Source: Patescibacteria group bacterium (GTDB taxonomy: Bacteria; Patescibacteriota; WWE3; UBA101185; UBA10185). From it: a stretch of 64,000 nucleotides of DNA. The notes below the pieces were generated by a model, which saw only the letters and a program-made list of their open reading frames with translations, made no database searches and was not told where the DNA came from. The stretch's first letter is position 1; every line of letters starts with the position of its first letter. Positions 15,979 through 46,187 of this stretch are shown in pieces. Position numbers and translations under genes: made by a program. Location: NCBI GenBank assembly GCA_016926555.1, contig JAFGOI010000008.1, positions 91,316-155,315 of the forward strand. Reading direction: 5' to 3'.

Positions 15979-16407
15979 TTAACCGACAAATGATTTTATT
16001 TCGTCCAGAATTTTATCAGGAGTGATCTCGGATTTAATAAGATAACCAGACGCACCCAATTTGAAAGCTTCATCAATAATATGTTCGCTGTTAAGATTGG
16101 TGAGAACAATAACTGGCCCTTTCTTAATATCCTTCGTATCTTTAATCTCTTTTAGAATTCTAATTCCGTCTTTAACAGGCAGGATCACATCAAGTAGCAG
16201 GAGATCCCATACCTCATTTTGAATCATTTCAAGACCAATGTTGCCATCCGAAGCCTGTAGTACTTCGTAACCTGCATCCATCAATATCTCAGCATAAAGT
16301 AAGCGTATATCGTGCTCATCCTCAACTATAAGAATAGTCTTCTTCGGCGGATTAAGTGTCACCATACTAGTTATAATAGTAACACATTTAGTAGGGGAGT
16401 TTGTCAA
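15979..16407 (-). CDS. Single-domain response regulator (CheY-like receiver only)
   Basis: ILIVEDEHDIRLLYAEIL...LLLLDVILP...LTNL...GYLIKS. 142 aa, no output domain. Confidence 0.85.
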   Translation of the reverse strand: MTNSPTKCVTIITSMVTLNPPKKTILIVEDEHDIRLLYAEILMDAGYEVLQASDGNIGLEMIQNEVWDLLLLDVILPVKDGIRILKEIKDTKDIKKGPVIVLTNLNSEHIIDEAFKLGASGYLIKSEITPDKILDEIKSFVG

Positions 16408-16421
16408 TAGTATCTTTTGTA

Positions 16422-16811
16422 CTACTTTAAAACCCGTTTCACTTCGTTTAAGATCTTATCCGGAGTAATATCCGATTTTACGATGTATCCGGTTGCACCT
16501 AGCTTATACGCCTCATCTGGCACGTGATCACTCTTGAGATTGGTGAGCAGAATTATGGGACCTTTTTGTAAGCATTCCGAATCCCTAAGATCCTTCAGTA
16601 TCGCCATCCCATCTTTCTCGGGTAATATTACATCCAATAACAGAACGTCCCAGTTTTCGTTTTGGATTTTCTCTTTTCCCTCATTTCCATTTACTGCCTG
16701 GATTACGATGTAACCTGCATCAGTTAGGATTTCTGCGTAGAGTAGGCGAATGTCTTTTTCGTCTTCTACAAGAAGTATTGCACGCTTTTTATTATCCTTG
16801 GATCCGATCAT
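16422..16811 (-). CDS. Single-domain response regulator (CheY-like), tandem paralog
   Basis: ILLVEDEKDIRLLYAEILTDAGY...LLLDVILPEKDG...LTNL...GYIVKS. 129 aa. Confidence 0.85.
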   Translation of the reverse strand: MIGSKDNKKRAILLVEDEKDIRLLYAEILTDAGYIVIQAVNGNEGKEKIQNENWDVLLLDVILPEKDGMAILKDLRDSECLQKGPIILLTNLKSDHVPDEAYKLGATGYIVKSDITPDKILNEVKRVLK

Positions 16812-16878
16812 ATATGTTCAATTTTACAAATTCAAATAAATATAGCATCTTCAGTAAGTATACTCATCATATATTGGC

Positions 16879-19341
16879 CTATATCCGACGTACAATACTT
16901 CTTTTCAAATCTAACTCTATAACTTCGTTATCTTTAAAAACCTTTGTTGCGATTTTCGTCCCTATGACACAAGGTATATTAAGCTCTCTTGATATAATCG
17001 CTGCGTGACAGGTCATACCTCCCTCATCTGTTACAATTGCTGCGGCTCTTCTCATTGCAGGAGAATATTGCGGTGTAGTCATAGTTGCTACTAAAACATC
17101 TCCCTCCTGAACTTTACTCATTTCTTTATGCGATCTTAATACTTTGGCTGTCCCTTTTAATCTATCAACATTACCAGAAGACACGGTCAATCCTTGTACA
17201 CTATGTACTGAACCCAAATCCGGTCTTAGCTCTTCGGTTAGAGCAATCACATCCTCAGGATCTTCGATAATCTCATATGTACCATTTACATAGTATAGAA
17301 TGTACGGATTGTCTATCCTTCTACTATAGATCTCCAACATCCTATGAGAATCGTCTATATTCTGTTTCAGCTCTTCAAACGAAAGATACTTAAATACATC
17401 TTCCGAAACATTCGTTTTTTCAGCTAAAACACTAAAAACCCTGTGCATAGCAATATGAGACTTATTGGTTGCCTCCTTTCTCTCATCCGACATCCGAGAA
17501 AGCGTGTGCACATATCCAATCTTTCTTAAATAATGCCCATCAAGGTTATACTTTGTTTTAATATCCGAGTGCAACTGTTTCGTATCATCTTCAAACCTAG
17601 ATAACTCTTCATATCTTTCCGTTAGTTCTTTCTTACTTTTTTCTAAATATTTACATATCTCCGCAATATAGTACTCCCTATCATACAGGTTGGGTCCATC
17701 ATACCCAAACGGTACCCAATAATACTTTTCAACCAATTGATCTATGGCATCTTGGATCCATCCTGGTAATTTTATAAAGTCAACATTCCTTTTCTTAAAT
17801 ACACTTTTTTGCCTCCCACTTACAATATCTAGACATAATTTAACTACCTGGTATTCTTCATCTAAACTAAACGACTTTTCCGGATTCATACTCATCACCC
17901 TATATTCTTCGGGTTCCATATCGAAACGCATAGACTCCTCCAGCAAATGCTTCCCTAAGGAATCTCCACCAACAAGCCAAGGAATAGAATTAAAACTGTT
18001 GTACTTCTCCCAATTATCCTTGATCTTCCTATATCTATTAATTAATTTGTTAATTGTATATTCACCTAGAGGCTCCTCCATAATCTTTTCCGATATAGAC
18101 ATCAATTTCCGCCCCTGTTCAAGTTGAGTATTATAGATTTTTGGTAGATACAATGGATCCTCAATATAAAGTTTCTTAAAGTGCTCTTCCATTAGTTTCC
18201 ACTCATTCTCAACTACAAAAGACGTTAAATCACCGTTGGGTTCAAATAATGTCCAAGCCTGTGGTAATCGAGTACCATGAAGTTCTTCAGTTACAGGGTG
18301 TGTTCTACTTGTATAATTCCACATACATGATACTAATTTAAGCTTTCTTGCCCTTAACATCCTGTATTTGTTGTCAGAATATTCAAAAACGTCTTTCTTG
18401 AGTGTTGTAATTGGCCGATTCTGCAAAATATATAACTTGTCATTTGCATAACACCATTCAACATCACAGGGAAACCTTGATATGCTTTCGATTTTCATAA
18501 CCTTATCTGCCAAGCATAATATTCTCTTATCATCAAGTTTTTGTTCTATTCCCTCTTCAAGGCTAATATCTTTAGCAATACATCCGCTTTCATCACAAAA
18601 CGTTGCCTCACTTTGATTATTAATCTGTTTAGAAAGTATTAGTTTTGTTTCCTTATCTACCACATAGCTATCTGGATGAATTTGCCCAGAAACAAGTTTC
18701 TCGCCCAAGCCATAACATGCTTCGATAAGAATATGATTTGTATTTTCCGTAATCGGATGTACACTAAAACACACTCCGGAAACCTCACTACTAACCATAC
18801 GTTGAACAACTACAGCAACCCCTATATCGGCCGAGTGAAACCCGTTTTCTACACGATAATACAAAGCTTTCGGTGAGTACAAAGACATCCAGCACGATTT
18901 GATACTCTCCACTAGATTATCCTTTGGTACACCTAGATACGTTTCTAGTTGACCTGCCCAAGCATAGTTCTTTCCATCTTCAACAGTTGCACTTGATCTA
19001 ACAGCAACATACCTACAATCAAGTTTATCGAAAGATTCCTCAATGCTCTCAATTATATATTCTGGAATCGTAACATCCTTAATTCTATTTGATATATTCT
19101 CCGACGCTCTCTCAAGATTACTTATATCTTGGGTATCAAGCGTACTTATTTGCGTATCTATTTCTAACATTAATTCTGGATTTAACACAATCTCCCTAAA
19201 AATACCCGTACTCACTATAAAACCCGGCGGAACCGGCACACCCTGTTTAATGAGATCTCCTAGGAAAGCGCCTTTTCCACCAACTAAATGAACATCTTTC
19301 CTAGAGACATTTTTCAAATTTATTATTGACTTATTAGACAT
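16879..19341 (-). CDS. PEP-utilising enzyme family phosphotransferase: PPDK_N-type ATP-grasp N-terminus plus C-terminal mobile phosphohistidine domain (rifampicin-phosphotransferase-like domain order; not a canonical PpsA)
   Basis: N-terminus VHLVGGKGAFLGDLIKQGVPVPPGFIVST. The C-terminal ~70 aa GGMTCHAAIISRELNIPCVIG is a swivel His domain. No PEP/pyruvate-binding TIM-barrel domain follows it. Confidence 0.7.
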   Translation of the reverse strand: MSNKSIINLKNVSRKDVHLVGGKGAFLGDLIKQGVPVPPGFIVSTGIFREIVLNPELMLEIDTQISTLDTQDISNLERASENISNRIKDVTIPEYIIESIEESFDKLDCRYVAVRSSATVEDGKNYAWAGQLETYLGVPKDNLVESIKSCWMSLYSPKALYYRVENGFHSADIGVAVVVQRMVSSEVSGVCFSVHPITENTNHILIEACYGLGEKLVSGQIHPDSYVVDKETKLILSKQINNQSEATFCDESGCIAKDISLEEGIEQKLDDKRILCLADKVMKIESISRFPCDVEWCYANDKLYILQNRPITTLKKDVFEYSDNKYRMLRARKLKLVSCMWNYTSRTHPVTEELHGTRLPQAWTLFEPNGDLTSFVVENEWKLMEEHFKKLYIEDPLYLPKIYNTQLEQGRKLMSISEKIMEEPLGEYTINKLINRYRKIKDNWEKYNSFNSIPWLVGGDSLGKHLLEESMRFDMEPEEYRVMSMNPEKSFSLDEEYQVVKLCLDIVSGRQKSVFKKRNVDFIKLPGWIQDAIDQLVEKYYWVPFGYDGPNLYDREYYIAEICKYLEKSKKELTERYEELSRFEDDTKQLHSDIKTKYNLDGHYLRKIGYVHTLSRMSDERKEATNKSHIAMHRVFSVLAEKTNVSEDVFKYLSFEELKQNIDDSHRMLEIYSRRIDNPYILYYVNGTYEIIEDPEDVIALTEELRPDLGSVHSVQGLTVSSGNVDRLKGTAKVLRSHKEMSKVQEGDVLVATMTTPQYSPAMRRAAAIVTDEGGMTCHAAIISRELNIPCVIGTKIATKVFKDNEVIELDLKRSIVRRI

Positions 19342-19496
19342 ACTCTAGCATTATAGAATTCTGGCAGAATTATAACACGCGGCGACAATATTTATAACTT
19401 GTAGTAATAAAATTAATGTTTTAAAAAGTTGTTTCATCGGTTTTGTCACTGGTTAAATTGACACCATAACAATAAATTCGTATCATACAAATCACC

Positions 19497-20714
19497 ATGG
19501 AAACTTTAGAGGAACTAGGTTTAATATATAACTGGGATAAAAAAAGGGTTATTAATAACAAAAAAATTCTGGATACTTCCCTTAGAGACGGCCTACAAGA
19601 TCCCTCTATAAGACAACCTAGTCTTGAAGAAAAAATAAAATTAATAGACTTAATGGATTCAGTTGGAGTGGATGCTGCAGATATCGGATTTCCAGTAAAT
19701 TCGAAGTCACACAAAAATGAAGTTATCGAAACCGCAAAACATATAAAGGAAAAAAATCTTGGGATTGAAGTATGCGTATTAGCACGCACGCAAAAAAAAG
19801 ATATTGAAGCCGCAATAGAGGTGTCACAGAAAGCTCAGATACCGGTCGAAGTAATAACTATAGTGGGAAGTAGTAAAGTAAGACACTTCGTAGAGAACTG
19901 GAATCTTGACCAAGTCAAAAAATGGATAAAAGAATGTATTACTCTGGCACTTAAAAACAATCTTGAAGTAAATTTTCTAACTGAAGATGGTACACGAACG
20001 GAACCAGGAATGCTTACAGATCTGTATAAATACGCAATTGACTTAGGCGCTTCCAAAGTTACGATTGCCGACACGGTCGGTTTTGCTACTCCTTATGCAA
20101 CAAAAAAGATAATCGAACTATTTAAAAAGGACATACTTAAGAAAAACAAAGATATCACATTAGATTGGCATGGACATAACGACAGAGATTTCGGCACCAT
20201 CAATGCTTTAGAAGCTTTTGAATCAGGTGCAGACAGGGCACACGTATGTATCTTAGGAATAGGAGAGAGAGCGGGTAACACGGCCATGGAACCGCTGCTA
20301 GTTAATATGAAAATGATGGGAATGGCTAACGGTAAAAACCTAAGGGAACTCCCACAACTCTCAATGTACGCCTCTAATATCTTTAATATCAATATACCCC
20401 AAAATATGCCCATCGTTGGGGAATACGTACACACAACGTCCGTTGGAATACATGCTTCCGCAATATTAAAAGCTAGAAATATGTACAGGGAGGACCTCGC
20501 TAATACAGTCTACTCTGGAGTCAATCCGCAGTACGTGGGACTAAAAACTGAGATATTTGTAGGGCCTTTGAGTGGAAGGGCTAATGTTATATATGTACTA
20601 AGAAAACACGGAATTGAGCCAACAGAAGAAAAAATAGAAAAAGTATTGAAACACGCTTCATCTAAAAATGTGGTTCTAAAAGACGATGAGGTCCTTCTTA
20701 TAACCAAGGACTAG
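19497..20714 (+). CDS. HMGL-like/DRE-TIM metallolyase family protein (2-isopropylmalate/homocitrate/citramalate synthase-like, no LeuA regulatory domain)
   Basis: LDTSLRDGLQD near the N-terminus and DWHGHNDRDFGTINALEAFESGA (HxH metal motif). 405 aa. Confidence 0.65.
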   Translation: METLEELGLIYNWDKKRVINNKKILDTSLRDGLQDPSIRQPSLEEKIKLIDLMDSVGVDAADIGFPVNSKSHKNEVIETAKHIKEKNLGIEVCVLARTQKKDIEAAIEVSQKAQIPVEVITIVGSSKVRHFVENWNLDQVKKWIKECITLALKNNLEVNFLTEDGTRTEPGMLTDLYKYAIDLGASKVTIADTVGFATPYATKKIIELFKKDILKKNKDITLDWHGHNDRDFGTINALEAFESGADRAHVCILGIGERAGNTAMEPLLVNMKMMGMANGKNLRELPQLSMYASNIFNINIPQNMPIVGEYVHTTSVGIHASAILKARNMYREDLANTVYSGVNPQYVGLKTEIFVGPLSGRANVIYVLRKHGIEPTEEKIEKVLKHASSKNVVLKDDEVLLITKD

Positions 20715-20724
20715 TGTCATAATG

Positions 20725-22635
20725 TTATAAATACCTTCTAGGATCCGTTATTTTACCTTCTATTACTGAAGCCGCGACTGTCAACGGAGAAGCAAGGAAA
20801 ATCTTACCTTCTTTCGAGCCCATTCGTCCCATAAAATTTCTATTTGATGAAGATATCATCACCCCGCTACTACTCAATAAACCTTTGTGTTTGCCATAAC
20901 AAGGACCACAAGTAGAAGATTCAATATTTGCACCTGCATCATAGAACACCTTTAAAATGCCTTCACTTAGTAATCTCTGATATATCTTCCTTGAAGCGGG
21001 GATTACAACAAAATCCACGCTGTCATGTATTTTTCTACCCTTTATGATTTTCGCCGCCTCGACAAAGTCCTCATACTTCCCATTTGTACAGGCACCCAAA
21101 AACCCGTTTGTTAACTTAAGATCATACACCGGAGGAAAGTTTGGATCATCCTGTTTTTGGCTTTCCAGCATATAATCCTCTATTTTGGAAATAAACGTAA
21201 CATTATCTGGTTTATGCGGAAAAGCGACACACGGTTCTAATGAGGACAGATCAACGTGTATAACACTGCTATAAACGCATTTCTCATCGAGGTTAGCCTC
21301 CTTATATGGATACTGAGCCCTATCTACTATAAAACTATCCGTCACAGAGTCATATTCGAAAATCGCCCCCCGCGCACTCGTTTCAACTACCATATTAGCA
21401 ATAGTGGTTCTCGCATCAATTGATAATGTCTTTAAAGCAGAGCCTCCAAACTCCATGATCTTCTTCGACGCGCCATGTACACCTACAATACTCAAGATAT
21501 ACAGAATTATATCTTTAGCATATACACCCTTCTGAAGCTTATTAGAAAAATCGACTCTTATGGTTTCGGGTACGACAAAATCATGTAAATGCCCTGTCGC
21601 CATAACATATGCAGCTTCAGTTGTACCAATACCAAATGATAATGAGTTTAACGCACCGCCCGTACAAGTATGAGAATCTGTACCTACAACAAAAGATCCC
21701 GGTACGATATAACCATCTTCCGCCAAAACCACATGTTCTATTCCATCCCCCGGTTTGTAGAACTTTAAATTCTGTTTTCTTGAAAAATCTCGCATAATTT
21801 CAACACCATCTGAACTTGTTACACTTGACGGGGGAGAATCGTGATCTACGATAAAAAATACTTTTGACTTATCATAAACAACAGGAGCGGTTTTATGAGC
21901 CCGATAAACATCAGTAAAATTATCTTCATATTCCTTAATGACGGCAGGACCAAAGGCATCATTAACAAACAATACATCCACTGGAATATTGTCTAATCTC
22001 TCTCCTGCATATACATCCCGATGTATATGCGAAGATATTATTCTTTCAACGAGTGTCTGGCTTTTATTGTTCTTTGCTTTGTACTTTGAATAATGATCTA
22101 ATCTTTTCCTTCTCTTTGATACACTATCCACTAAAAAATCTTTTACAAGATTTGCTTTCCCTCCCATAGAAAAAATCTTTTTATCTGTAGTATCTATATT
22201 AAAGTCGTGAATTATATCATTATGAATAAGTTGGCTATCCTCTAAATTAAGCACAACTTCATCATTCATGTTGAAAATTCTGGTATTATCAAATCGAATG
22301 AGTATCAATCCGTTATTTAGCGCATTTCTATAAAATATTTCCGAAAAAGACTGCGCTATTACGACCCTCACATTGTTATGCTGCAATGCGTAGATTGCTT
22401 GCTCTCTTGACGAACCAGCTCCAAAGTTTTTGCCGGCAATTATTAAATTATGCTCGATCATACCACAACGAGTTATAAAATCGGGATCGTATACAGAAAA
22501 AGCATACTTTCCAAAAAATGATCTATCTGTTGACTCCTGCAAAGTCCATCCAGGAATAATATCGTCAGTATTAATATGATCGAAAAATATAGAGGACACA
22601 GTTAACCTGAAGGTATTTCGCATATACAAACCCAT
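20725..22635 (-). CDS. Fused 3-isopropylmalate dehydratase-like protein with permuted order: LeuD-like swivel domain N-terminal, LeuC-like aconitase catalytic domains C-terminal
   Basis: N-terminal HINTDDIIPG...GKNFGAGSSREQAIYAL...VIAQSFSEIFYRNALNNGL (LeuD signature). Then VGTDSHTCTGG, GACTNGKYED, STCGPCYG and SSSNRNFMGRMG (aconitase-family Fe-S ligand and signature motifs). Confidence 0.75.
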   Translation of the reverse strand: MGLYMRNTFRLTVSSIFFDHINTDDIIPGWTLQESTDRSFFGKYAFSVYDPDFITRCGMIEHNLIIAGKNFGAGSSREQAIYALQHNNVRVVIAQSFSEIFYRNALNNGLILIRFDNTRIFNMNDEVVLNLEDSQLIHNDIIHDFNIDTTDKKIFSMGGKANLVKDFLVDSVSKRRKRLDHYSKYKAKNNKSQTLVERIISSHIHRDVYAGERLDNIPVDVLFVNDAFGPAVIKEYEDNFTDVYRAHKTAPVVYDKSKVFFIVDHDSPPSSVTSSDGVEIMRDFSRKQNLKFYKPGDGIEHVVLAEDGYIVPGSFVVGTDSHTCTGGALNSLSFGIGTTEAAYVMATGHLHDFVVPETIRVDFSNKLQKGVYAKDIILYILSIVGVHGASKKIMEFGGSALKTLSIDARTTIANMVVETSARGAIFEYDSVTDSFIVDRAQYPYKEANLDEKCVYSSVIHVDLSSLEPCVAFPHKPDNVTFISKIEDYMLESQKQDDPNFPPVYDLKLTNGFLGACTNGKYEDFVEAAKIIKGRKIHDSVDFVVIPASRKIYQRLLSEGILKVFYDAGANIESSTCGPCYGKHKGLLSSSGVMISSSNRNFMGRMGSKEGKIFLASPLTVAASVIEGKITDPRRYL

Positions 22636-22684
22636 AGCAATGGATGGGAAATATTATACTACAAAATTACCCATAAAAGTAATA

Positions 22685-23110
22685 TTATGCTACTGATTTA
22701 ACTTCCGTCTTGCCGAAAGCCTTAAGTGCTTCCTCAGCGCACTTGACATCGTCATTTACATCAAGTGATCCGCCAACACCCACACCACCAACTACCTTAT
22801 CACCATCTTTTATAGGAAGTCCACCGGCTAAGGTAATTAACTCATTGCTAAAGGCCGCATTTAAACCAAAATACGGCTTTCCTTCTTCAGTATATGGAGC
22901 AATATCACCGGACGGGAGCCCTAACAGGGCAGAAGTATACGCTTTCATACTAGCAAATTTAGGACTTATATAGAAAGCGCCATCCATTCTGGACATAGCG
23001 ACAAGTGTACCGTGCTCATCAACAACTACCGTGGTAACTTTAATTCCTAATTCTTTTGCTTTCTTTTCTGAGAGTTCTAAAGCTTCTTTTGATTTTGAAA
23101 GATTCAGCAT
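22685..23110 (-). CDS. GlcG/HbpS-like DUF336 family protein
   Basis: TTVVVDEHGTLVAMSRMDGA...KAYTSALLGL...GGLPIKDGDKVVGGVGVGGS. 141 aa, no signal peptide. Confidence 0.7.
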   Translation of the reverse strand: MLNLSKSKEALELSEKKAKELGIKVTTVVVDEHGTLVAMSRMDGAFYISPKFASMKAYTSALLGLPSGDIAPYTEEGKPYFGLNAAFSNELITLAGGLPIKDGDKVVGGVGVGGSLDVNDDVKCAEEALKAFGKTEVKSVA

Positions 23111-23181
23111 ATTTGGATTCCCCCATAAAATAAACTATACTGGCACTAGTATAGTTTACTCAAAAATTTGTTTCAAGATAT

Positions 23182-24612
23182 ATGGCACAACCTGCCCAAA
23201 AAAACACTAAAGCTCAAAACAAGCAAACTGAGAACCTAATTGAGAAAAACAGGGCTTTAGAAGCAACATATAAATTGTTTGAAATAGTATTGGAGTCCCT
23301 TGAATTCCAAGAGATGAGCCAAAAAATCGCAGATATTATTCCACAAACGTTAGGCTACGAAACGGGAGTTCTCGCTCTAGTTGATGAGGACAAAGAAAAA
23401 CTAATAAGAGTAGCCATATCACAAACACCTGGAGGTGAAACTGCACTTGGAAACCTAGAACGTCCGTTTAAAGAAATTGTTATACCTCTTAACCACTTAG
23501 AAAACTATTGTATTAAGTCCATGCGTGACAAAAAACAATATATTACACGTAACTTATACGATGTAGTAAGACCGGCAATCTCAAAAGAAAACGCGGAGTT
23601 TGTTCAAAAACTCATGGGAACTTCTATCTCCATAGTTAATCCTCTCATAGCACACGGGAAATCAATCGGAATAATAATAGCGAGTATGTCAAAAAATCCA
23701 GAAGAATTATCTCCCTTTGAGAAAGAAATGATTACAAGATTTTCACAAAGTGTTGGAATAGTACTTGAGCACTCAAAATTATATACAGAGTTAAAAAGAG
23801 CAAAGGAAGCCCTTAACAAGGCGTACGATAAACTTAGAGAACTTGACAAAGCAAAAGACGATTTCCTGTCAGTTGCCTCACACGAATTACGAACTCCTAT
23901 GACTATTATTAAAAGCTACATATGGATGCTGCAGTCCGGCAAGTATGGTGAACTAAATAATAACCAGAAAAAATACGCGGACACCGCAATGAAAAGTACT
24001 GATCGTTTAATTAATCTTGTAAATGATATGTTAAATATCTCAAGGATAGAACAAGGAAGAATGGAATTTAAAATTGAGGCACTCGATTTCTGTGAAAATA
24101 TAAGGGAATTAATAGAAGGTTTTAGGATTCAAGCAGAGGAAAAGCATATTTACATAAAAATAGAAAAAGATTGTGATGAAACCGATGTTTCTGCGGATCC
24201 AACTAAATTAAAAGAAATAATAACTAATCTGCTTGGAAACGCCTTAAAATTCACGAATAAAGGTGGCATCATAATAAAACTCACAGACATCGGTAATTAT
24301 ATTCAGACATCAATCATTGACACAGGGGTTGGAATAGGTGCACAGGATATCCCTGTACTTTTTAAAAAGTTTGGTCGTCTAGACAATTCATACACAAAAG
24401 TTGCTGAATCGGGAGGAACAGGATTGGGACTTCACATAGTAAAATTATACACTGAACTTATGGGAGGCAACGTGGGAGTTTACTCGGAAGGAAAAGGGAA
24501 GGGCAGCACATTCTGGTTTACACTCCCAAAGTACAAGGGTAAATATAAAAGGACAAAAAAGGAAGAAGAAAGTAAATCCCACGTTCAGGATAAAATATCA
24601 ACTATAATTTAG
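23182..24612 (+). CDS. Cytoplasmic sensor histidine kinase (GAF-like N-terminal domain, HisKA, HATPase_c)
   Basis: H-box SVASHELRTPMTIIKSY and G-box GGTGLGLHIVKLYTELMGGNV. No TM segment. Confidence 0.8.
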   Translation: MAQPAQKNTKAQNKQTENLIEKNRALEATYKLFEIVLESLEFQEMSQKIADIIPQTLGYETGVLALVDEDKEKLIRVAISQTPGGETALGNLERPFKEIVIPLNHLENYCIKSMRDKKQYITRNLYDVVRPAISKENAEFVQKLMGTSISIVNPLIAHGKSIGIIIASMSKNPEELSPFEKEMITRFSQSVGIVLEHSKLYTELKRAKEALNKAYDKLRELDKAKDDFLSVASHELRTPMTIIKSYIWMLQSGKYGELNNNQKKYADTAMKSTDRLINLVNDMLNISRIEQGRMEFKIEALDFCENIRELIEGFRIQAEEKHIYIKIEKDCDETDVSADPTKLKEIITNLLGNALKFTNKGGIIIKLTDIGNYIQTSIIDTGVGIGAQDIPVLFKKFGRLDNSYTKVAESGGTGLGLHIVKLYTELMGGNVGVYSEGKGKGSTFWFTLPKYKGKYKRTKKEEESKSHVQDKISTII

Positions 24613-36990: not shown

Positions 36991-37617
36991 CTAAGTTCGT
37001 TTTCTCATATCATTTTTCATATGAAACAAGGAGAAAGTACTCATAATGGAAAATAGGCCAACTGCCAACATCACAAATTCGTACCCATAAGTTGCCGCGA
37101 TGAACCCTCCAATTGCACCAGCAACAGCTGTACCAAGATCCGTCGCGGAATAATAGATGCTCCATTCCAAACCCTCCTCGTGTTCATCAATATGACGAGT
37201 AAAAATAGCCGGCCACGGAGGAAAAGACAGCGCCGCCCCTAAACCATGCAATATCTGTACTGCATAAACGTGCCAAGGTTCAGAAACAAATAAATATATA
37301 AACGGAACGGAAGTGGAAATTATCGAGCCCGTTATTAGTATCCAAAAATCATCCAGCTCACCCTTTTCAAGATCAATATATCTGGCCACTGGAATTTGAA
37401 CCAGGCTTTTTACTAGAAAATACATACCCATAGCTATACCCACCATAGTTACATCACCGCCGGAAACTTTATCCGTGAAAAATATCGCTAGTATCGGATT
37501 AATAAATCCCCATCCTGTAAACAAAATTAAGTCGGAATACACTAAAGTTTTTATAACCTTATTTATTGTTACTCCCTTGAACAATGTTGAAATATGCTTT
37601 CTTTTCTTCACCATCAA
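36991..37617 (-). CDS. Six-TM membrane protein resembling half of an MFS-type transporter
   Basis: 208 aa of alternating hydrophobic helices. No second half nearby, since rnhB is divergent upstream. Confidence 0.35.
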   Translation of the reverse strand: MMVKKRKHISTLFKGVTINKVIKTLVYSDLILFTGWGFINPILAIFFTDKVSGGDVTMVGIAMGMYFLVKSLVQIPVARYIDLEKGELDDFWILITGSIISTSVPFIYLFVSEPWHVYAVQILHGLGAALSFPPWPAIFTRHIDEHEEGLEWSIYYSATDLGTAVAGAIGGFIAATYGYEFVMLAVGLFSIMSTFSLFHMKNDMRKRT

Positions 37618-37720: not shown

Positions 37721-38398
37721 ATGGGTGTCAGATTAATCGCTGGTATCGACGAAGTGGGTAAAGGACCCTTAGCAGGACCTGTAGTAGCTTCTGCTGTTAT
37801 ATTGGACTTAAGAAAAGTATTTGAATTTGAAGAGCAATACAATAATAGTACTTTGGACGAAACCAACTCAACCGAAACGAAAGAGCCTAATACACATGAT
37901 AAACTAAAAGATACATTATATATAGAAATAAACGACTCAAAAAAGATATCTGATAAAAAACGACGTTTAATTAGCGATTTCCTGCAAAGTAGAGTACTGG
38001 ATTATGCCATAGCGGAAATATCACATGAATTTATTGACAAGCATGGAATCTCAACCGCAGTTCAATTAGCTTTCTACCAATCTATAAAGGGTCTGGATAT
38101 AAAACCGGAACACGTCCTAACAGATTTTGTTCACATTAGAAAAATCACCGAGCAGCATCAAACTAACATAATACAAGGAGATAGTTTAAGCTTAACTATA
38201 GCAGCGGCCTCGATTATTGCCAAAGTCCACAGGGACAATATCATGATAGACATGCACAACATTTATCCACAGTATCAGTTTCATCAACATAAAGGCTACG
38301 GCACGAAAAAACACATACAGGCGTTAAGAGAATACGGACCCTGTAAGATTCATAGAAGAAGTTTTGAGCCGGTGAAAACGTATTCTAGATATTTTTAG
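37721..38398 (+). CDS. rnhB: Ribonuclease HII (with ~40-aa insertion after the first catalytic motif)
   Basis: MGVRLIAGIDEVGKGPLAGPVVASAVIL...DSKKIS. The track ORF begins at 37673, but the Met at 37721 has a GGGAGAG SD-like upstream. Confidence 0.8.
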   Translation: MGVRLIAGIDEVGKGPLAGPVVASAVILDLRKVFEFEEQYNNSTLDETNSTETKEPNTHDKLKDTLYIEINDSKKISDKKRRLISDFLQSRVLDYAIAEISHEFIDKHGISTAVQLAFYQSIKGLDIKPEHVLTDFVHIRKITEQHQTNIIQGDSLSLTIAAASIIAKVHRDNIMIDMHNIYPQYQFHQHKGYGTKKHIQALREYGPCKIHRRSFEPVKTYSRYF

Positions 38399-39507: not shown

Positions 39508-39762
39508 ACTTTTTAGCGTGGTTTAAGTTTACTTTACCATAAGATACTACATATACATGATACAATTATCAACTTTTTTTCAAAGTCTTCTTAGAATTGA
39601 TCCTAGAGGCCGAGTTTACTTTGTAGTTGCAACAACAAGGAAAAGGCGCTTGTGGGGTTTTGTAAAGTATAAATCAAGCAGGTTTAATGTTAAAATCTAC
39701 GCAATTTGGAAACCGACTCAGCTTATCTCACATAACCCGTGGGAGAAGAAAGGTGAAACTAA

Positions 39763-40074
39763 ATGATTGTAAAAAGATTTACAAGAAAAAAAGAAGACTT
39801 TATTTGCAATAACTGTGGTTACAAAGTTACTGGAACCGGCTATACTAACCACTGTCCGAAATGCCTTTGGAGCCTTCATGTAGACATAAACCCGGGTGAC
39901 CGCCGAGAAAAGTGCAAAGGCATGATGGAACCTGTTTCGGTTGTTAATACACCAAATGGAATGAAGATTATACATAAGTGTACAAAATGCGGTTATATCA
40001 GCAAAAACACAATCTCCGCCGAAGATACTAGAGAACTTGTGGCCGTCTTATCAACAAATCCAGCTATAATTTAA
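39763..40074 (+). CDS. RNHCP-domain protein (Cys-rich zinc-ribbon-like)
   Basis: FICNNCGY...YTNHCPKCLWSLHVD...KCTKCGY. The (R/T)NHCP motif is present. Confidence 0.55.
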   Translation: MIVKRFTRKKEDFICNNCGYKVTGTGYTNHCPKCLWSLHVDINPGDRREKCKGMMEPVSVVNTPNGMKIIHKCTKCGYISKNTISAEDTRELVAVLSTNPAII

Positions 40075-40514
40075 CTTATTTCCTCATATATCATAACCAA
40101 AACGTACATACTAGCCGTAGGGGCGGGAAATAAGCGGCATTAAAAGACGATAGAAAAGCGATATGTAACTCAGTATAGAGTAGGGATTTATTTATTTTAA
40201 TTAAATTAAATTTCTGACTATACCCACTTTCCATATTTTTTTTATTAGGGAATTACAAAAGAGTAGTCTAAAACTCCTAGACACCACACGTCGTATAATG
40301 TATGTTTAACGACGTATAATATAGAAATTTCACAGCAACGGAACAATTCACTAAAATAGACACATCTAATTAGTAGGGAGTAAGCTGGGCTCTATCCTTT
40401 ACACTTTTATTCAGTTCTGTATATTAAATGCTTTTTTTTATGAATTAATACAAAATTATTTATTTATTAATCTGCTTCTAACAAGTCTGTTTGTGCTTAA
40501 TTTCCAATGATTTT

Positions 40515-40523
40515 TTATCCACA
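40515..40523 (+). promoter_or_regulatory. Perfect consensus DnaA box TTATCCACA
   Basis: ttttTTATCCACAacc read directly, inside a 660-bp AT-rich non-coding region. Confidence 0.5.
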
Positions 40524-40537
40524 ACCTAAATCCAGAA

Positions 40538-40624
40538 GTATGACAACTCTACTCTAGAGGATGTATGACAATTTTACAAAATATATATGACAATTCTACA
40601 GATCTGATGTATGACATTTCTACA
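40538..40624 (+). repeat. Four tandem iteron-like direct repeats (core (G/A)TATGACA(A/T)(C/T)T(C/T)TAC(A), 23-25 bp period)
   Basis: Cores read directly at 40538 (GTATGACAACTCTAC), 40563 (GTATGACAATTTTAC), 40586 (ATATGACAATTCTACA) and 40609 (GTATGACATTTCTACA). Confidence 0.75.
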
Positions 40625-40733
40625 TGAAGATTGAACCCTAATTTTACCCTAACACCGGCACCCTATAGTATTATGTGCTAAACATAACAACCTACTACTC
40701 TACTTTTGGCTGTATCTAAGGGAAATAAAAAGA

Positions 40734-41534
40734 TCAGCTGTGAAATAATAGCGCTAATATAACAAATAAAAAAACTGTGGAAATGTTCTGAAAAATATAT
40801 TTTTTTGTAATATTATTTTTTAGGTGCGCGTTTACATAGCTTAGACCATACATAAGAACTGAAGACACAACCAACGCCCTTAGAAAGGCTTCAGAAGGAA
40901 AAAACGATAAGCCTATGGATACAGAAGAAACCATGAAAAACACCAACGCGGATAATAATATCTCTTCCCCCACCCTTATCCTTTTTGCTTCTACATCAAG
41001 CTTTAATGACCATATTTGATACATACACATAAAATAGCCAATAAATCCTACCAACAAAGCATGGTAAACAGAATTGATCGGTATTTTAAATAACCCTACG
41101 TACAATGGAATTGATACCAATGACGAAAGAATCTGACTCCACGTTATCGCTACCCTATACAAAGGGATCAATTCGTCCTTATCTGATACTACCAGAAATA
41201 TATTATCCGAAAGCAGAATTAAATAATAAAGAACTCCACAGCCTAGAATAGATATCAACTGAAAAATATACGTAAAATTAGGGAAACTTCTTAGAAAAAT
41301 AACACTCCCCAACAACAAGCTTGCCGGCAGTAAGGAGGCCATATGCACATTCCTGACCCCAATATTTGGATAGTGAGCTAAAACTACATTTATTAAAGTA
41401 AATACAATCACAGCTACCAATAATCTAAATGTAGACAACATAAAAGTGCTAAACACAAGATAGATAAACATACACGCTATTGCCGTATGAAAAAGGAATC
41501 TTTGTCTTTTATCTATCTGTAGTAATTTAATCAT
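40734..41534 (-). CDS. Polytopic integral membrane protein, function unknown
   Basis: 266 aa with ~7 hydrophobic segments. No recognisable motif. Confidence 0.5.
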
Positions 41535-42070
41535 CTCGGAGAAAAATTGGAGTATATTTCCTGAACATCGTCATTATCTTCCAATCTTTCATTCAACTTT
41601 TCCAGTTTACCATGAGTTTCCTTGTCCACTTCAATTACAAATGAGGGTTTACTTGGATCTTGCGCAAAAATATAAGAAGTACTTCCACTTGCACCTAAGG
41701 ATCCACCGGAACTAGTTAGAATATTCCGTATTTCCGACACTACCCTATTTCTATTATCAGTAATAACTTTAATATAATATGCTACCCCACCCGGTCCGAA
41801 GCCTTCATATATTATTTCCTCTAAATTCTCACTGTCACTGCCTTTACCTGTACCTTTTTTTATCGCTCTTTCAATGTTATCTTTCGGCATTCGCGCATGT
41901 TTTGCCTTATCAATAGCTAACCTAAGTGAAGGATTGGCATCCGGGTCTCCCCCACCCTTCTTCGCAGCTATAGTTATTAACCGCGCGATCTTAGTAAACT
42001 CCTGACTTCTTTTTGCATCATTTATAGCTTTATCACGCTTAATTGTTGACCATTTTGAATGTCCTGACAT
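41531..42070 (-). CDS. YebC/PmpR-family protein (probable transcriptional/translational regulator), C-terminally short
   Basis: [57 protein letters not shown] and [21 protein letters not shown]. Confidence 0.8.
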
Positions 42071-42809: not shown

Positions 42810-43649
42810 TTATCTTAAATCATCGTCTTCAAACACAACTTCCTTTTTTGGTGTATTTTCTTCAGTCTCTCCACTACTTTTTTCGTCCTTCTGTTCTCTT
42901 ACATTGGGCGACTTGTTCTTTCTTTTATTTTTCTTGGGTTTAGCTGATAAACCTTGTTTCTCCGACGGGTTTCCTTGTTGCTTTGTTGCATCCTGCCCGT
43001 TTGGAGAGACACCCGCTTTTTTCACATCTTCTTTTGGCTTCGCATCATTTTGCGGAGGTACCACCTTAGCTTCATCAGATCGTACTAATGTCATCTCACC
43101 TTCTGTATTAGTGTCAATAGACTTGACCCCTCCTATTGTATTAACTCGCTCATCTGTTCCAACTTCCTTATCTTCTTTTTGTGTAATCAACCTATCGAAC
43201 GTTGCATAAGGAGCGAAAGGCTTCTTTTCCGGTAATAAAACGAAAACCTTATCGTTGAGCTTTATCTTATTGTAATCTACAACCTCATCCACAATTCTAT
43301 GACTGCCGTGCTCCGTCAGAACATACCAATTGCCCTCTTTTTTTGAAACTATTCCCTCCACTTTCTTTCTATTTACTTTTTTTATGTGCTTGAAACTTTT
43401 CTGATCACCTTTTTGGACCATTTTTAGAGTATCGCCGTATACCAACTTAGTCTTGGCAGCGTAATTATTAGGAACATCAAACGCTTCCCCCTCATCCGTT
43501 ACCATCTCAACACCGTTGAATGTACCTACAATACCCGGTTCCTCACTTTTGACCACAGCTTTTTTCCCAGAACCTTTCAATAACCCCTTAAACTCCGCAA
43601 ATTCCCCTTCCAGCTTTTCTATCCTTTTTAATAAATCTGTATTTTCCAT
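42810..43649 (-). CDS. Hypothetical protein with Lys/Glu-rich disordered C-terminus
   Basis: 279 aa ORF in a tightly packed region. No motif recognised. Confidence 0.4.
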   Translation of the reverse strand: MENTDLLKRIEKLEGEFAEFKGLLKGSGKKAVVKSEEPGIVGTFNGVEMVTDEGEAFDVPNNYAAKTKLVYGDTLKMVQKGDQKSFKHIKKVNRKKVEGIVSKKEGNWYVLTEHGSHRIVDEVVDYNKIKLNDKVFVLLPEKKPFAPYATFDRLITQKEDKEVGTDERVNTIGGVKSIDTNTEGEMTLVRSDEAKVVPPQNDAKPKEDVKKAGVSPNGQDATKQQGNPSEKQGLSAKPKKNKRKNKSPNVREQKDEKSSGETEENTPKKEVVFEDDDLR

Positions 43650-43652
43650 ATA

Positions 43653-46187
43653 TTACTCACTCAAATCGGCCTCTTCTACGCCCTTTTTCGAACGATGTTC
43701 CTGCGCAATGGCCGCACCTTTATCAAAACTAGTCTCTATCCACTTTGATATTTTCTGCTCAACATATTCCCTATTAGTACCATGCTTCTCTCTGCTCAAA
43801 GCGAGAACCCTTTCCCTATTTTCTGTCTTTTTCACTACAAAATCACCCTCCCAAGGTACCAAAATCCTCGCTGAAAAAGGCAACGACGTCATTCCGTCTA
43901 TCATTAGTTTAATATATATCTGAAACCTTTCAAGCGATATTATATCTTCAGCACTAAAATACGGTGAGAATTCGTATTCCATTGCTCTAGCATCAGGAGC
44001 ACCAAGTGAAAACGCAGCTATAGTACCAACGTTTCCAAACACAGCCTTAAGAATTTCCTCAGGCAGCTGTGCTGTAAACTGATGAGTTAAATATAACCCC
44101 AGCTTATATTTTCTTGATTCTGACAGTATTTCCTCAAAACTGCCTGTTGCAAAATTTTGGAATTCGTCCACATACAGATAAAATGGCCTTCTTTTCTCAT
44201 ATGGTATCTTTGCCCGCTGAAGCGCGTAAAACTGAAGCCTGGATACTAAAAGGGCTCCCAATAAATTAGCGTTGTCAGATCCAATTTTACCTTTAGATAG
44301 ATTCATCAATAATATCTTCCCGTCATTCATGGCCTCCCATATATTTATAGTCGAGTTCCTTTGGCCCAATATATTCCTAATAGTCGGAGAGGCCAAGAAT
44401 CTGTTTACCTTATTTTGTATAGGAGCTATAGCCTCTGTTACAAATCGTTGATTACCTGAAAGGTTTTTATACTCAGTTTCCCAAAAACGTTTTACTACTG
44501 AATCCTCAACATAATGGAGAATGTAATTTCTATAATTCTTATCCTCTAATAACCGGGTTATAGCTAACATAGTTGTTCCAGGAACCTCCAACAAGGTCAG
44601 AATAGCATAATTCAGCAGATACTCTAATCTAGGACCCCATGAATAATCAAAATGCTGTTTTATGGCCGCCACGAGACCAGAAGCCATCAAATTCTTCTGA
44701 GACGAATCTTCCAATTCAAGTAAGTTCAAACCAATCGGCCTATCTGTATCGGAAGGATCTAAATAAATAACATCATCCAGACGATGGTCCGGAATACGAT
44801 CAAGTATTTTTTCAATAGTCTCCCCATGCGGATCAAGAATTCCCACACCTTCTCCATTCACAATATCCTGAGTAATCATAGTCTCAAGTAGTGTACTTTT
44901 GCCTGTACCAGACTTCCCAATCAAATACATATGCCTTAACCTGTCATCTCCATTTTTCAGACCAAACCTCACTTTCTTACTTCTATACAGCGTGTCGCCT
45001 AAATATACACAATCCGCTGTCGGTAGATTAGAGGGGGGTTCTGACTTTCTGGAATAACTCCACGCTATAAAGGGCGTTGTAACAGAGGAAGAAGGAAGAT
45101 GATATATAGTAGCTAATTCTTGGGTATTCAATATCATCGACGAATCACTATCAAAGTATCTAGACTCATAATTCTTGAGCTCCTCTGACTTATTTGGGGA
45201 TAATATAGGTGTCAAACTGTTTGCACTTGCTATTGAAAACTGCTGTAGCGACGCTAGAAAATGCCTCATGTTTATATTTACCCTCTGTTCCGATTCCCCC
45301 GCGGACAATACTCTTACAACTACACCAAATCCCATTCGCCCTAACTTTGACTCTATCGCTTCCAGTTCGGCTTCCTGTGTAACACTTAATCGAACCGGCT
45401 CCTCCTTCACATTAACTGGTGTTCTGCTTCTGTCATCTTCCGCGGGACGCTGGAATATCGCAACTGGAATATCGGCGATAATATCAACAAATTCCCTGAA
45501 AATGTCTCCAAAGGCATCTTTAAATACATCAATAAAACTTCTTCCCCTTTTCTTTACATCCTCCCCCGCTTTCACCGCGGCAATATAATCAGCCCCTTCC
45601 TGCTGCCAAACATCGGCTAGTGGTCTTATTACATACTGAATCCACACACGCTCATCTTCTTGTATTTCAGAAACAGCCGATGTTAAAGCCGACAGAGTAT
45701 CCACTTCAAAGTCTTTATAAGTCTTTATGGGGAAGAAATCAGGTTTGGTCAGACTTACTAATGAAACGTCGTAAACTAAACCGCTGCCATCTAGTTCCCG
45801 GCTGTAGTCTTCCACCATCTTTATCTGCGCCGTTGGATGATGAGCATAAACCTGCCCCTCAACAAATTTCATTACACTCGCGGGAGCCACAACAAAAAAC
45901 CGTATACCACCCGCTCCAGAGGATATAAATTCAAAAGAAACATGCTCCTGCAAACTGGCATCTTCCTTCAACAACCCGTGCAAAGAAGCGAACATATGCT
46001 CCGCCGCAACTGATTTCGAGTCTGGCGCATCACCAATATCAGTTCTACTCACCTGTATCTCAAGAACCTGCAGATCCTGCATACCCGCATCTTCGTTACC
46101 TTTATTCAACTGTCTTATTTTGTAATAAATAACAGAAGATATAGCTAAAAAGCCTATAAAAATGATCGCTAAATAGGATATTTCCAT
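43653..46187 (-). CDS. FtsK/HerA-superfamily P-loop ATPase, VirB4/VirD4 (type IV secretion)-like, single N-terminal TM
   Basis: Walker A LIGKSGTGKSTLLETM at aa ~425, ILDPHGE, Walker B YLYVDEFQNF, and RKYKLGLYLTHQFTAQL. N-terminal TM LAIIFIGFLAISSVIYY. 844 aa. Confidence 0.5.
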   Translation of the reverse strand: MEISYLAIIFIGFLAISSVIYYKIRQLNKGNEDAGMQDLQVLEIQVSRTDIGDAPDSKSVAAEHMFASLHGLLKEDASLQEHVSFEFISSGAGGIRFFVVAPASVMKFVEGQVYAHHPTAQIKMVEDYSRELDGSGLVYDVSLVSLTKPDFFPIKTYKDFEVDTLSALTSAVSEIQEDERVWIQYVIRPLADVWQQEGADYIAAVKAGEDVKKRGRSFIDVFKDAFGDIFREFVDIIADIPVAIFQRPAEDDRSRTPVNVKEEPVRLSVTQEAELEAIESKLGRMGFGVVVRVLSAGESEQRVNINMRHFLASLQQFSIASANSLTPILSPNKSEELKNYESRYFDSDSSMILNTQELATIYHLPSSSVTTPFIAWSYSRKSEPPSNLPTADCVYLGDTLYRSKKVRFGLKNGDDRLRHMYLIGKSGTGKSTLLETMITQDIVNGEGVGILDPHGETIEKILDRIPDHRLDDVIYLDPSDTDRPIGLNLLELEDSSQKNLMASGLVAAIKQHFDYSWGPRLEYLLNYAILTLLEVPGTTMLAITRLLEDKNYRNYILHYVEDSVVKRFWETEYKNLSGNQRFVTEAIAPIQNKVNRFLASPTIRNILGQRNSTINIWEAMNDGKILLMNLSKGKIGSDNANLLGALLVSRLQFYALQRAKIPYEKRRPFYLYVDEFQNFATGSFEEILSESRKYKLGLYLTHQFTAQLPEEILKAVFGNVGTIAAFSLGAPDARAMEYEFSPYFSAEDIISLERFQIYIKLMIDGMTSLPFSARILVPWEGDFVVKKTENRERVLALSREKHGTNREYVEQKISKWIETSFDKGAAIAQEHRSKKGVEEADLSE

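Follow-up and report, generated by a model that had tools for sequence, protein, structure and literature searches.

Replication of bacterial main chromosomes proceeds, as a near-rule, bidirectionally from oriC with dif lying opposite, and chromosomal origins normally carry clusters of DnaA boxes. In iteron plasmid origins, such as those of pSC101, P1, F and R6K, direct repeats spaced by about two turns of the helix accompany one or two DnaA boxes and an A+T stretch, and replication is often unidirectional. Here we analyze a non-coding gap beside an Xer-family recombinase gene in 64,000 nucleotides of the chromosome of a WWE3 bacterium of the candidate phyla radiation (CPR) (assembly GCA_016926555.1, contig JAFGOI010000008.1, positions 91,316 to 155,315; hereafter the window, numbered from its first letter). 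The gap is best explained as a conserved chromosome-maintenance module of WWE3-type CPR bacteria, in which a dif-type unit and an origin-like unit are held within approximately 0.5 kb. Among the closest described recombination systems, dif is defined as a 6-bp centre flanked by two 11-bp arms of partial symmetry, xerS immediately adjoins difSL to form one module, and archaeal XerA/dif works without FtsK, with archaeal dif often not placed 180 degrees from oriC (PMC5357621). Among replicons, the closed CPR genomes of Ch65, Collierbacteria and Beckwithbacteria (Microgenomates UBA1400; accessions including CP011210 and MFAS01000001) have a near-linear, monotonic cumulative GC skew, for which an adjacent origin and terminus or unidirectional theta replication was proposed with no locus named (Kadnikov et al. 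2020, PMC7143001), and the chromids of Pseudoalteromonas are unidirectional by sequencing depth, with dif2 located 4-27 kb from ori2 (PMC7858055). In our literature search we came upon no publication that deals with oriC, dif or GC skew in WWE3.

Anatomy and conservation of the intergenic module

An initial annotation, made from the window alone, had proposed the gap as a candidate replication origin or element boundary on account of a perfect DnaA box and four iteron-like repeats. The comparison across related genomes that it called for places the module in more than 50 diverged WWE3-type CPR genomes, where the gap recurs between the Xer-family gene and the membrane-protein/yebC operon. The origin proposal thus survives as a functional non-coding locus with an origin-like anatomy, though each of the specific options attached to it fails or needs changing. 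Species-representative genomes searched with the recombinase yielded seven loci with Xer homologues at 66-70% protein identity, and the 19-nt core (positions 8-26) of the 28-mer described below, used as a search pattern in metagenome contigs, returned 94 stretches. The 81 metagenome loci counted below are the stretches with at least 700 bp downstream of the 28-mer; the anatomy was compiled from 53 non-redundant modules, and the profiles of the A+T island and of weak DnaA boxes from 46. Long contigs bearing the module include JBPOHV010000001.1 (925,229 bp, module near 690 kb), ERZ27254749 k141_139117 (852,674 bp, near 112 kb), Ga0246236_1000002 (768,150 bp, near 695 kb), Ga0208373_1000006 (903,723 bp), Ga0257125_1000004 (697,627 bp), Ga0209518_1000005 (532,509 bp) and JACKGU010000001.1 (520,026 bp). 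Three of the long contigs, of 0.77-0.93 Mb and additional to those recovered with the core, have it in the stretch that was read, and one of these three has variants at outer dyad positions and at the last base of the DnaA box. The flanking proteins are only 28-75% identical among module-bearing genomes, and the gaps of relatives cannot be aligned except in short blocks; inside this otherwise unalignable DNA the 53 non-redundant modules keep a fixed order of motifs and their rough spacing.

The strongest conserved block in the gap is the 28-mer ACGTCGTATAATGTATGTTTAACGACGT, which, together with its link to the Xer-family gene, was missed in the initial annotation. It is a dyad of 11-6-11 geometry, in which the centre TGTATG separates two 11-bp arms that mirror each other at 9 of 11 positions, and so has the form of a dif site (about 28 bp, partially symmetric 11-bp arms and a centre of 6-8 bp). 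The element previously read as a duplicated CG(A/T)CGTATAAT (CGWCGTATAAT) is indeed a repeated sequence, but its copies are really the two arms of this dyad, and the TATAAT that follows the second arm is specific to the window. In four of the five genome loci located through the protein alone, the 28-mer is identical at 27-28 of 28 positions (28/28 in L004 and L007, 27/28 in L003 and L005), while the Xer proteins of these loci are 66-70% identical. With positions 8-26 fixed by the search pattern, conservation across the 53 modules is 83-100% at the free positions 1-7 and 28, and information content collapses at -1 and +29, so the element is exactly 28 bp long. Variation is restricted to the outer positions 1, 2, 3, 4, 6, 27 and 28. 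Matches to the core never exceeded one per contig among the 94 stretches, and those listed share no contig, including contigs of 904, 698 and 533 kb; the site is thus a unique one, conserved in related genomes and intergenic in the loci examined.

The neighbouring gene belongs to the Xer family. It adjoins the 28-mer in almost all loci whose upstream sequence extends far enough, always 240-890 bp to its left and transcribed away from it, and as such provides a cognate recombinase that, judging from sequence, probably binds the 28-mer. Against NCBIfam models the protein scores 248 bits for XerD, 245 for XerC and 215.5 for XerA, all below the equivalog cut-offs; with equal XerC and XerD scores, and a score just below the XerA cut-off, it falls in none of the curated subfamilies. 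Its named close relatives are from candidate division WWE3. Around the dyad, A residues at -9 and -7 (40279 and 40281) are 85-91% conserved and the flanks on both sides are G-rich. Approximately 160 bp to the left of the 28-mer lies a GC-rich element, CCGTAGGGGCGGGAAATAAG (40114-40140), that is partly conserved in relatives and may be a promoter or leader of xer.

To the right of the dyad lies the origin-like unit. The A/T runs reported in the initial annotation are present, and no other 70 bp of the whole window is as rich in A+T or as unstable as the A+T island among them. Over the 46 profiled modules an island of approximately 85% A+T occupies -130 to -60 relative to the DnaA box, against a background of 64%, and it is the composition that is conserved, not the sequence; this is a candidate for the A+T-rich unwinding element that would be expected beside the box of an oriC. 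The perfect DnaA box, TTATCCACA, was confirmed and occurs on the same strand in 75 of the 81 metagenome loci, mostly 190-260 bp past the start of the 28-mer (72 fall in the +200 to +249 bin), and in these loci it is the sole perfect box on both strands for 1.5 kb to each side. The window itself holds 20 boxes with at most one mismatch where 22 are expected, including a second perfect box inside rnhB at 38263, so a single box is within chance and it is only conservation across genomes that gives this one its significance. Positionally conserved degenerate boxes are absent from the 46 modules. We consider it possible from the motif and its placement that DnaA binds here. The short spacer that follows the box is G+C-rich in most relatives.

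The four direct repeats of the initial annotation were also borne out, at start-to-start spacings of 25, 22 and 24 bp. Their 14-nt core, TATGACAWNNNTAC, has four matches in the window, all within the gap, where 0.12 are expected and none of 100 shuffles reaches four. The family consensus is (A-rich)gTATGACAAwcnTACa. Relatives mostly carry two to five repeats (mode three), all on the plus strand and with a modal spacing of 23-25 bp, the first most often starting 16-19 bp past the DnaA box; correspondingly, at least two TATGACA motifs are found on the same strand in 74 of the 81 loci, mostly at +230 to +450 from the 28-mer. At least three direct repeats at about two helical turns, an A+T stretch and a DnaA box are thus present, as in an iteron origin. 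Two other identities were considered and rejected. As degenerate DnaA boxes, the repeats match at best 4-6 of 9 positions by manual comparison, and no weak boxes are conserved; as promoters, the hits of a sigma-70 scan are weak and unconserved, and the -35- and -10-like parts of the repeats are wrongly spaced on manual reading. Beyond the repeats stands a conserved AGCAC..CCTATAGTATG element, followed by a C/T-rich tract (approximately 40689-40711 in the window). The motif CCTATAG occurs within 800 bp of the 28-mer in 66 of the 81 loci, mostly at +350 to +450, and appears in an AGCAC-CCTATAG context in many modules.

Strand composition and the weighing of explanations

The composition of the strands was read over the 64-kb window and over at most 21 kb of each related contig. 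The plus strand of the window contains 16.3% G and 22.1% C, and the minus strand carries 44 of the 57 genes (a count from the gene list). At third codon positions, the GC skew (GC3) of the plus strand to the left of the module is -0.25 in minus-strand genes (below 30.6 kb) and -0.10 in plus-strand genes, and to the right it is -0.32 and -0.17, respectively; the corresponding TA skew (TA3) is negative in all four classes of side and orientation. The plus strand is therefore C-rich and A-rich at third positions in both gene orientations and on both sides, and 16 other loci likewise have no consistent inversion of skew. From this uniformity it follows that a fork passes leftward through the whole window. 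In the absence of an inversion, the module is neither origin nor terminus under ordinary bidirectional replication, and the third-codon skew excludes both a classical bidirectional oriC and a classical terminus here.

The favored explanation, which we advance tentatively and at a little under an even chance, is that an origin, a polar barrier and dif are co-located on a chromosome that is replicated unidirectionally. In this proposal, DnaA at its box and a protein on the repeats would open the easily melted A+T island, which lies approximately 60 bp to the left of the box, while the two to five same-direction repeats, beginning 16-19 bp beyond it and coated with protein, would form on the right a polar barrier to the rightward fork. 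The leftward fork alone would escape, circle the chromosome, return from the right and terminate at the module. Were a single fork to end there, the origin, the terminus and the site at which Xer resolves dimers, here the 28-bp core site linked to the single Xer-family gene, would coincide. An origin-like unit and a dif-like site, identified independently and each at odds with a mid-replichore position under bidirectional replication, stand 200 bp apart in DNA of uniform skew, and for this combination a unidirectional model is the simplest. The leftward fork deduced from the skew fits, as it puts the repeats where a barrier would be needed and dif within 0.5 kb of termination. Uniform skew is likewise what a unidirectional replicon predicts, and it agrees with the monotonic skew of other CPR genomes. 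No gene start adjoins the box or the repeats, and on the right the module is bordered by a gene's 3' end, which supports the lack of a transcriptional target; in relatives, ruvC lies on the other side of the module, which we count in favor of the dif-like reading. The full form of the proposal, in which the main chromosome of WWE3-type CPR bacteria would be replicated unidirectionally from this module of approximately 0.5 kb by means of a one-box DnaA origin, a polar-barrier array and the dif of a single linked Xer, we hold more tentatively still.

Several points weigh against this proposal. The module has a single DnaA box in place of a cluster, and the A+T island lies 5' of TTATCCACA, on the opposite side from the box-spacer-trio-unwinding-element order of the basal unwinding system (BUS) at E. 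coli oriC (an orientation calibrated on the E. coli R1 sequence); on manual reading, no in-phase run of three DnaA-trios follows the box. By tblastn, dnaA was not found in the window or in approximately 100 related loci, the query being a B. subtilis DnaA sequence that scores 629 bits against TIGR00362. A protein for the repeats was not identified either, and near the module there is no known homologue of Tus, RTP or Rep. The right arm of the 28-mer is unlike the canonical XerD arm, and the skew does not switch at the site as would be typical of a dif at the terminus. In FtsK-independent systems such as archaeal XerA, by analogy, a terminus location would not be strictly needed, and it would be trivially satisfied if replication were unidirectional. 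Directly on initiation, the proposed fork would meet the gyrB-gyrA-rnhB genes head-on. Lastly, uniform skew over 64 kb is equally expected at any mid-replichore locus, and the published genomes with monotonic skew belong to Microgenomates UBA1400, a CPR lineage other than WWE3.

The strongest alternative is one that we regard as on balance unlikely though a serious contender: the 28-mer and its gene would form a single-recombinase xer/dif module, the adjoining DNA would be accessory or architectural, or an unrelated neighbour, and a bidirectional origin would lie elsewhere. The dif-type geometry and the linkage to xer are accounted for directly, the uniform skew on both sides fits a mid-replichore site, and a site of this kind, being FtsK-independent, need not lie at the terminus. 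Precedents exist in xerS/difSL, which form one module, and in archaeal XerA, which is FtsK-independent and whose dif is often not opposite oriC (PMC5357621). Moreover, the conserved elements stand on one side of the core only, at a loose distance between core and box, which recalls accessory sequences. However, the conserved flank of approximately 500 bp extends far beyond the accessory sequences of cer and psi (about 180 bp), the spacing of core to box has no obvious helical phasing, and the pairing of a perfectly conserved DnaA box with the region's least stable DNA is what classically marks an origin. We know of no Xer system in which DnaA or an A+T island serves as an accessory.

The short, protein-site-like motifs conserved in unalignable spacers, the presence of one DnaA box only and the skew without inversion would also suit a regulatory or DnaA-buffering locus, in which the box and repeats control the promoter of xer or of an unannotated transcript, or titrate or reactivate DnaA in the manner of datA and DARS, with the 28-mer as the operator of a dimeric regulator. 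We judge this improbable. A transcription-factor binding array, another possibility raised in the initial annotation, may be considered as well, though no gene start adjoins the repeats. The nearest gene start, that of xer, is approximately 0.5-0.9 kb from the box, the repeats abut the 3' end of a gene, and neither a conserved RNA structure nor a conserved small ORF was found in the module. Outside the gap the repeat motif is absent from the 64 kb and so is not the motif of a regulon. Several DnaA boxes are carried by datA and DARS. The exact 28-bp block of 11-6-11 form beside an Xer gene is better explained as a recombination site.

A classical bidirectional oriC placed away from dnaA, one of the possibilities raised in the initial annotation, is very improbable. 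It has on its side the DnaA box, the A+T island and the repeats, with gyrB, gyrA, holB, dnaB and ssb nearby. Nonetheless, it fails locally on the annotation's own terms, as the GC3 and TA3 inversion that should mark such an origin is absent from the window and from the 16 other loci, and the box is single; in addition, genes converge on the site instead of diverging from it, and a dif-type site 200 bp away would serve no purpose at a bidirectional origin.

The possibility that the gap encodes a structured non-coding RNA, with the motifs as RNA elements, is more remote again. A gap of 0.66 kb is conspicuous in a compact genome, and the 28-mer can form a 7-bp hairpin in which one outer pair varies between C-G and T-A, but several variants of the 28-mer break the putative stem without compensation and the spacers vary in both length and composition. 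RNAalifold found essentially no consensus structure on either strand of the 46-53 modules (0 to -1.9 kcal/mol), and the gap holds no Rfam family at the gathering threshold or at E <= 10 (weak hits had E >= 0.4). As the initial annotation stated, the gap has no open reading frame (ORF) of 60 aa or more, the only ORFs being of 47 and 33 aa, and it has no tRNA or tmRNA.

Least probable of all, and in effect rejected, is the iteron origin or boundary of an integrated plasmid or integrative and conjugative element (ICE), as the gyrB-dnaB neighbourhood, ATPase included, is syntenic in every relative with enough sequence and no break in composition marks the site, for all that iteron-like repeats, a DnaA box and an A+T stretch are present and that a tyrosine recombinase and a TrwB/VirD4-like ATPase lie on opposite sides of them. 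A scan of flanking ORFs revealed no Rep-like family, so the adjacent Rep gene of a mobile iteron replicon is missing, and blastn detected no similarity to the region among 72,556 PLSDB plasmids and 50,697 phage records; the 19-nt dyad core is absent from IMG/VR. The VirB4/VirD4-like ATPase that had suggested an ICE is present, but as part of conserved chromosomal synteny.

Gene neighbourhood of the module

The window is a CPR-type bacterial chromosome and not a mobile element, and its features are collected in Table 1. The order gyrA-rnhB-xer-gap-membrane protein-yebC-TPR-ATPase, with a gap of 0.9-1.2 kb, is kept in all five loci with upstream sequence, and the synteny from gyrB to dnaB reaches at least -13 and +14 kb from the module. 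It is the same in nearly all of the metagenome loci, at identities of 47-75% for Xer and 28-49% for the membrane protein.

Table 1. Positions of the genes of the window and of the elements of the intergenic gap
Feature	Position	Strand	Remarks
Type IV pilus cluster	0-30 kb		
holB, gyrB, DHH protein, gyrA	30.6-37 kb	+	
MFS fragment and rnhB	37-38.4 kb		
Xer-family tyrosine recombinase gene, 340 aa	38485-39507	-	Pfam Phage_integrase and Phage_int_SAM_1
orf69 and RNHCP gene	39557-40074	+	Pfam RNHCP
Non-coding gap	40075-40733		
28-bp dyad ACGTCGTATAA-TGTATG-TTTAACGACGT	40288-40315	no strand	Candidate Xer recombination (dif-type) site
A+T island, 86% A+T	40398-40467	no strand	Candidate DNA-unwinding element; A+T-rich tract continues to ~40514
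Consensus DnaA box TTATCCACA	40515-40523	+	Sole box in the module
Four oriented repeats	40535-40624	+	Cores 40539-40552, 40564-40577, 40586-40599, 40610-40623
GGCACCCTATAGTATTATGTGCT	40657-40679	+	Window copy of the conserved AGCAC..CCTATAGTATG element
266-aa membrane protein	40734-41534	-	
Short YebC, TPR protein, TrwB/DUF87-type ATPase, pseudouridine synthase, DksA-like protein, EF-P, tRNA-Leu, DnaB	41.5-51.4 kb		
HisRS, L31, RF, SSB, YchF	right of 51.4 kb		

Between xer and the module, orf69 and the RNHCP gene form an insertion specific to the window and stand outside the conserved module. No relative has an RNHCP match between xer and the 28-mer (one locus, L029, has such a match 14 kb away), and this zinc-ribbon gene and its companion resemble a local insertion or translocation beside the dif-like site. 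On the other side, relatives carry ruvC (PF02075, 160-168 aa) between yebC and the membrane-protein gene (L103 8085-8573, L105 7885-8367, L108 7823-8329), so the module normally lies between a Holliday-junction resolvase operon and xer. The window is without ruvC at 40734-42070, and there yebC (41531-42070) directly abuts the membrane-protein gene. The YebC/TACO1 homologues of the clade are short, at 167-181 aa, and for that of the window the best Pfam match is confined to positions 1-55 in the 160-position profile of the second and third domains. The last 30 or so codons of the membrane-protein ORF fall in a stretch of 84% A+T (40755-40824), which among the 70-bp stretches of the window ranks second in A+T content; either the true stop is earlier, or the A+T-rich flank of the module overlaps the end of the gene.

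The ATPase is an 844-aa membrane-anchored protein of the TrwB/DUF87/DUF8128 group and of FtsK/HerA type (43653-46187), followed by a gene for a 279-aa protein (42810-43649), and the two are kept 3-7 kb from the module in nearly every locus that reaches that far. It is chromosomal, not conjugative, and could be a candidate DNA translocase for segregation or for activation of Xer. To the left of xer, a 208-aa ORF (36991-37617) covers only the first 166 or so of the 347 positions of MFS_1 and is probably a truncated gene or a replacement; an IMPDH gene takes this position in several relatives (L103, L105 and L108). Further left, in the region 15979-24612, the pilus cluster is interrupted by a block of PPDK-like, homocitrate-synthase-like, aconitase and HbpS-like genes, after which comes a GAF histidine kinase. 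The same region has two single-domain response regulators, approximately 24 kb to the left of the module; relatives in which they occur have them to the right of the module instead, at about +8 to +9 kb, with the strand unchanged.

Two further observations concern IMG/VR. It contains 48 arrays of TATGACAA, which are exact tandem repeats unrelated to the module: they lack the TAC half, and no DnaA box is in place beside them. Separately, in four jumbo-phage-sized viral contigs of 250-285 kb (L122, L135, L137 and L155) the motif TTATGACAA is scattered in many non-tandem copies through A+T-rich DNA; it may be a promoter motif of the phages, and it is unrelated to the CPR module.

Comparison with known replicons and Xer systems

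Our findings provide a concrete, conserved and single-copy candidate locus for an adjacent origin and terminus in CPR bacteria, which, if the proposal is true, would offer a physical explanation for the monotonic GC skew of some CPR genomes. Even if the chromosome is bidirectional, the locus would represent a new linked Xer/dif-type module in CPR, with the unusual feature of a DnaA box conserved at a distance from any origin. We found no description of the composite module in the searchable literature and no counterpart of it among the plasmid and phage collections.

The nearest likeness in overall arrangement is to the chromids of Pseudoalteromonas, in which dif is also close to the origin, a bipartite GC skew is lacking, and one fork has been proposed to be blocked at once at a ter region beside the origin (PMC7858055). 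These chromids are plasmid-derived secondary replicons with RepA and tus, and 4-27 kb separate dif2 from ori2, whereas the WWE3 module would serve a main chromosome with a DnaA box, has all of its elements within approximately 0.5 kb and has no rep or tus homologue in sight, its unidirectionality being deduced from composition. The Microgenomates UBA1400 genomes are likewise small chromosomes of CPR bacteria and, as in the window, one strand is rich in C and the other in G (PMC7143001), though they are of another lineage and the WWE3 skew was read over the 64-kb window and stretches of at most 21 kb.

With respect to initiation, the module shares with oriC of E. coli and B. subtilis, and with their basal unwinding system, a consensus DnaA box near the least stable DNA and, in most WWE3 relatives, a short G+C-rich spacer after the box (PMC8287927). 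It differs in its single box, in having no in-phase run of at least three trios, in the opposite placement of the island and in the lack of a skew inversion. Compared with iteron plasmids, the WWE3 module is chromosomal and vertically inherited, with no adjacent rep gene found and no similarity in PLSDB.

With respect to recombination, XerS/difSL, XerH/difH and archaeal XerA/dif likewise link a recombinase gene to a unique, conserved and imperfectly palindromic site (PMC5357621), and archaeal dif shares the 11-6-11 geometry of the WWE3 28-mer. The arm sequences of these single-recombinase modules differ from those of the 28-mer, and none is known to carry beside its site a DnaA box together with an A+T island and an array of repeats. 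The module resembles cer and psi in that functional DNA flanks its core Xer site on a single side, and the Tus-Ter and RTP-Ter systems in having an oriented array of protein sites near dif (general background and PMC5357621 in both cases); it has no PepA, ArgR or ArcA sites and no identified Tus or RTP homologue, and its repeat consensus is unrelated to Ter. The module is thus best filed as a combination of known kinds, namely xer/dif modules, iteron/DnaA-box origins and unidirectional replicons, in which it is the composite that is new.

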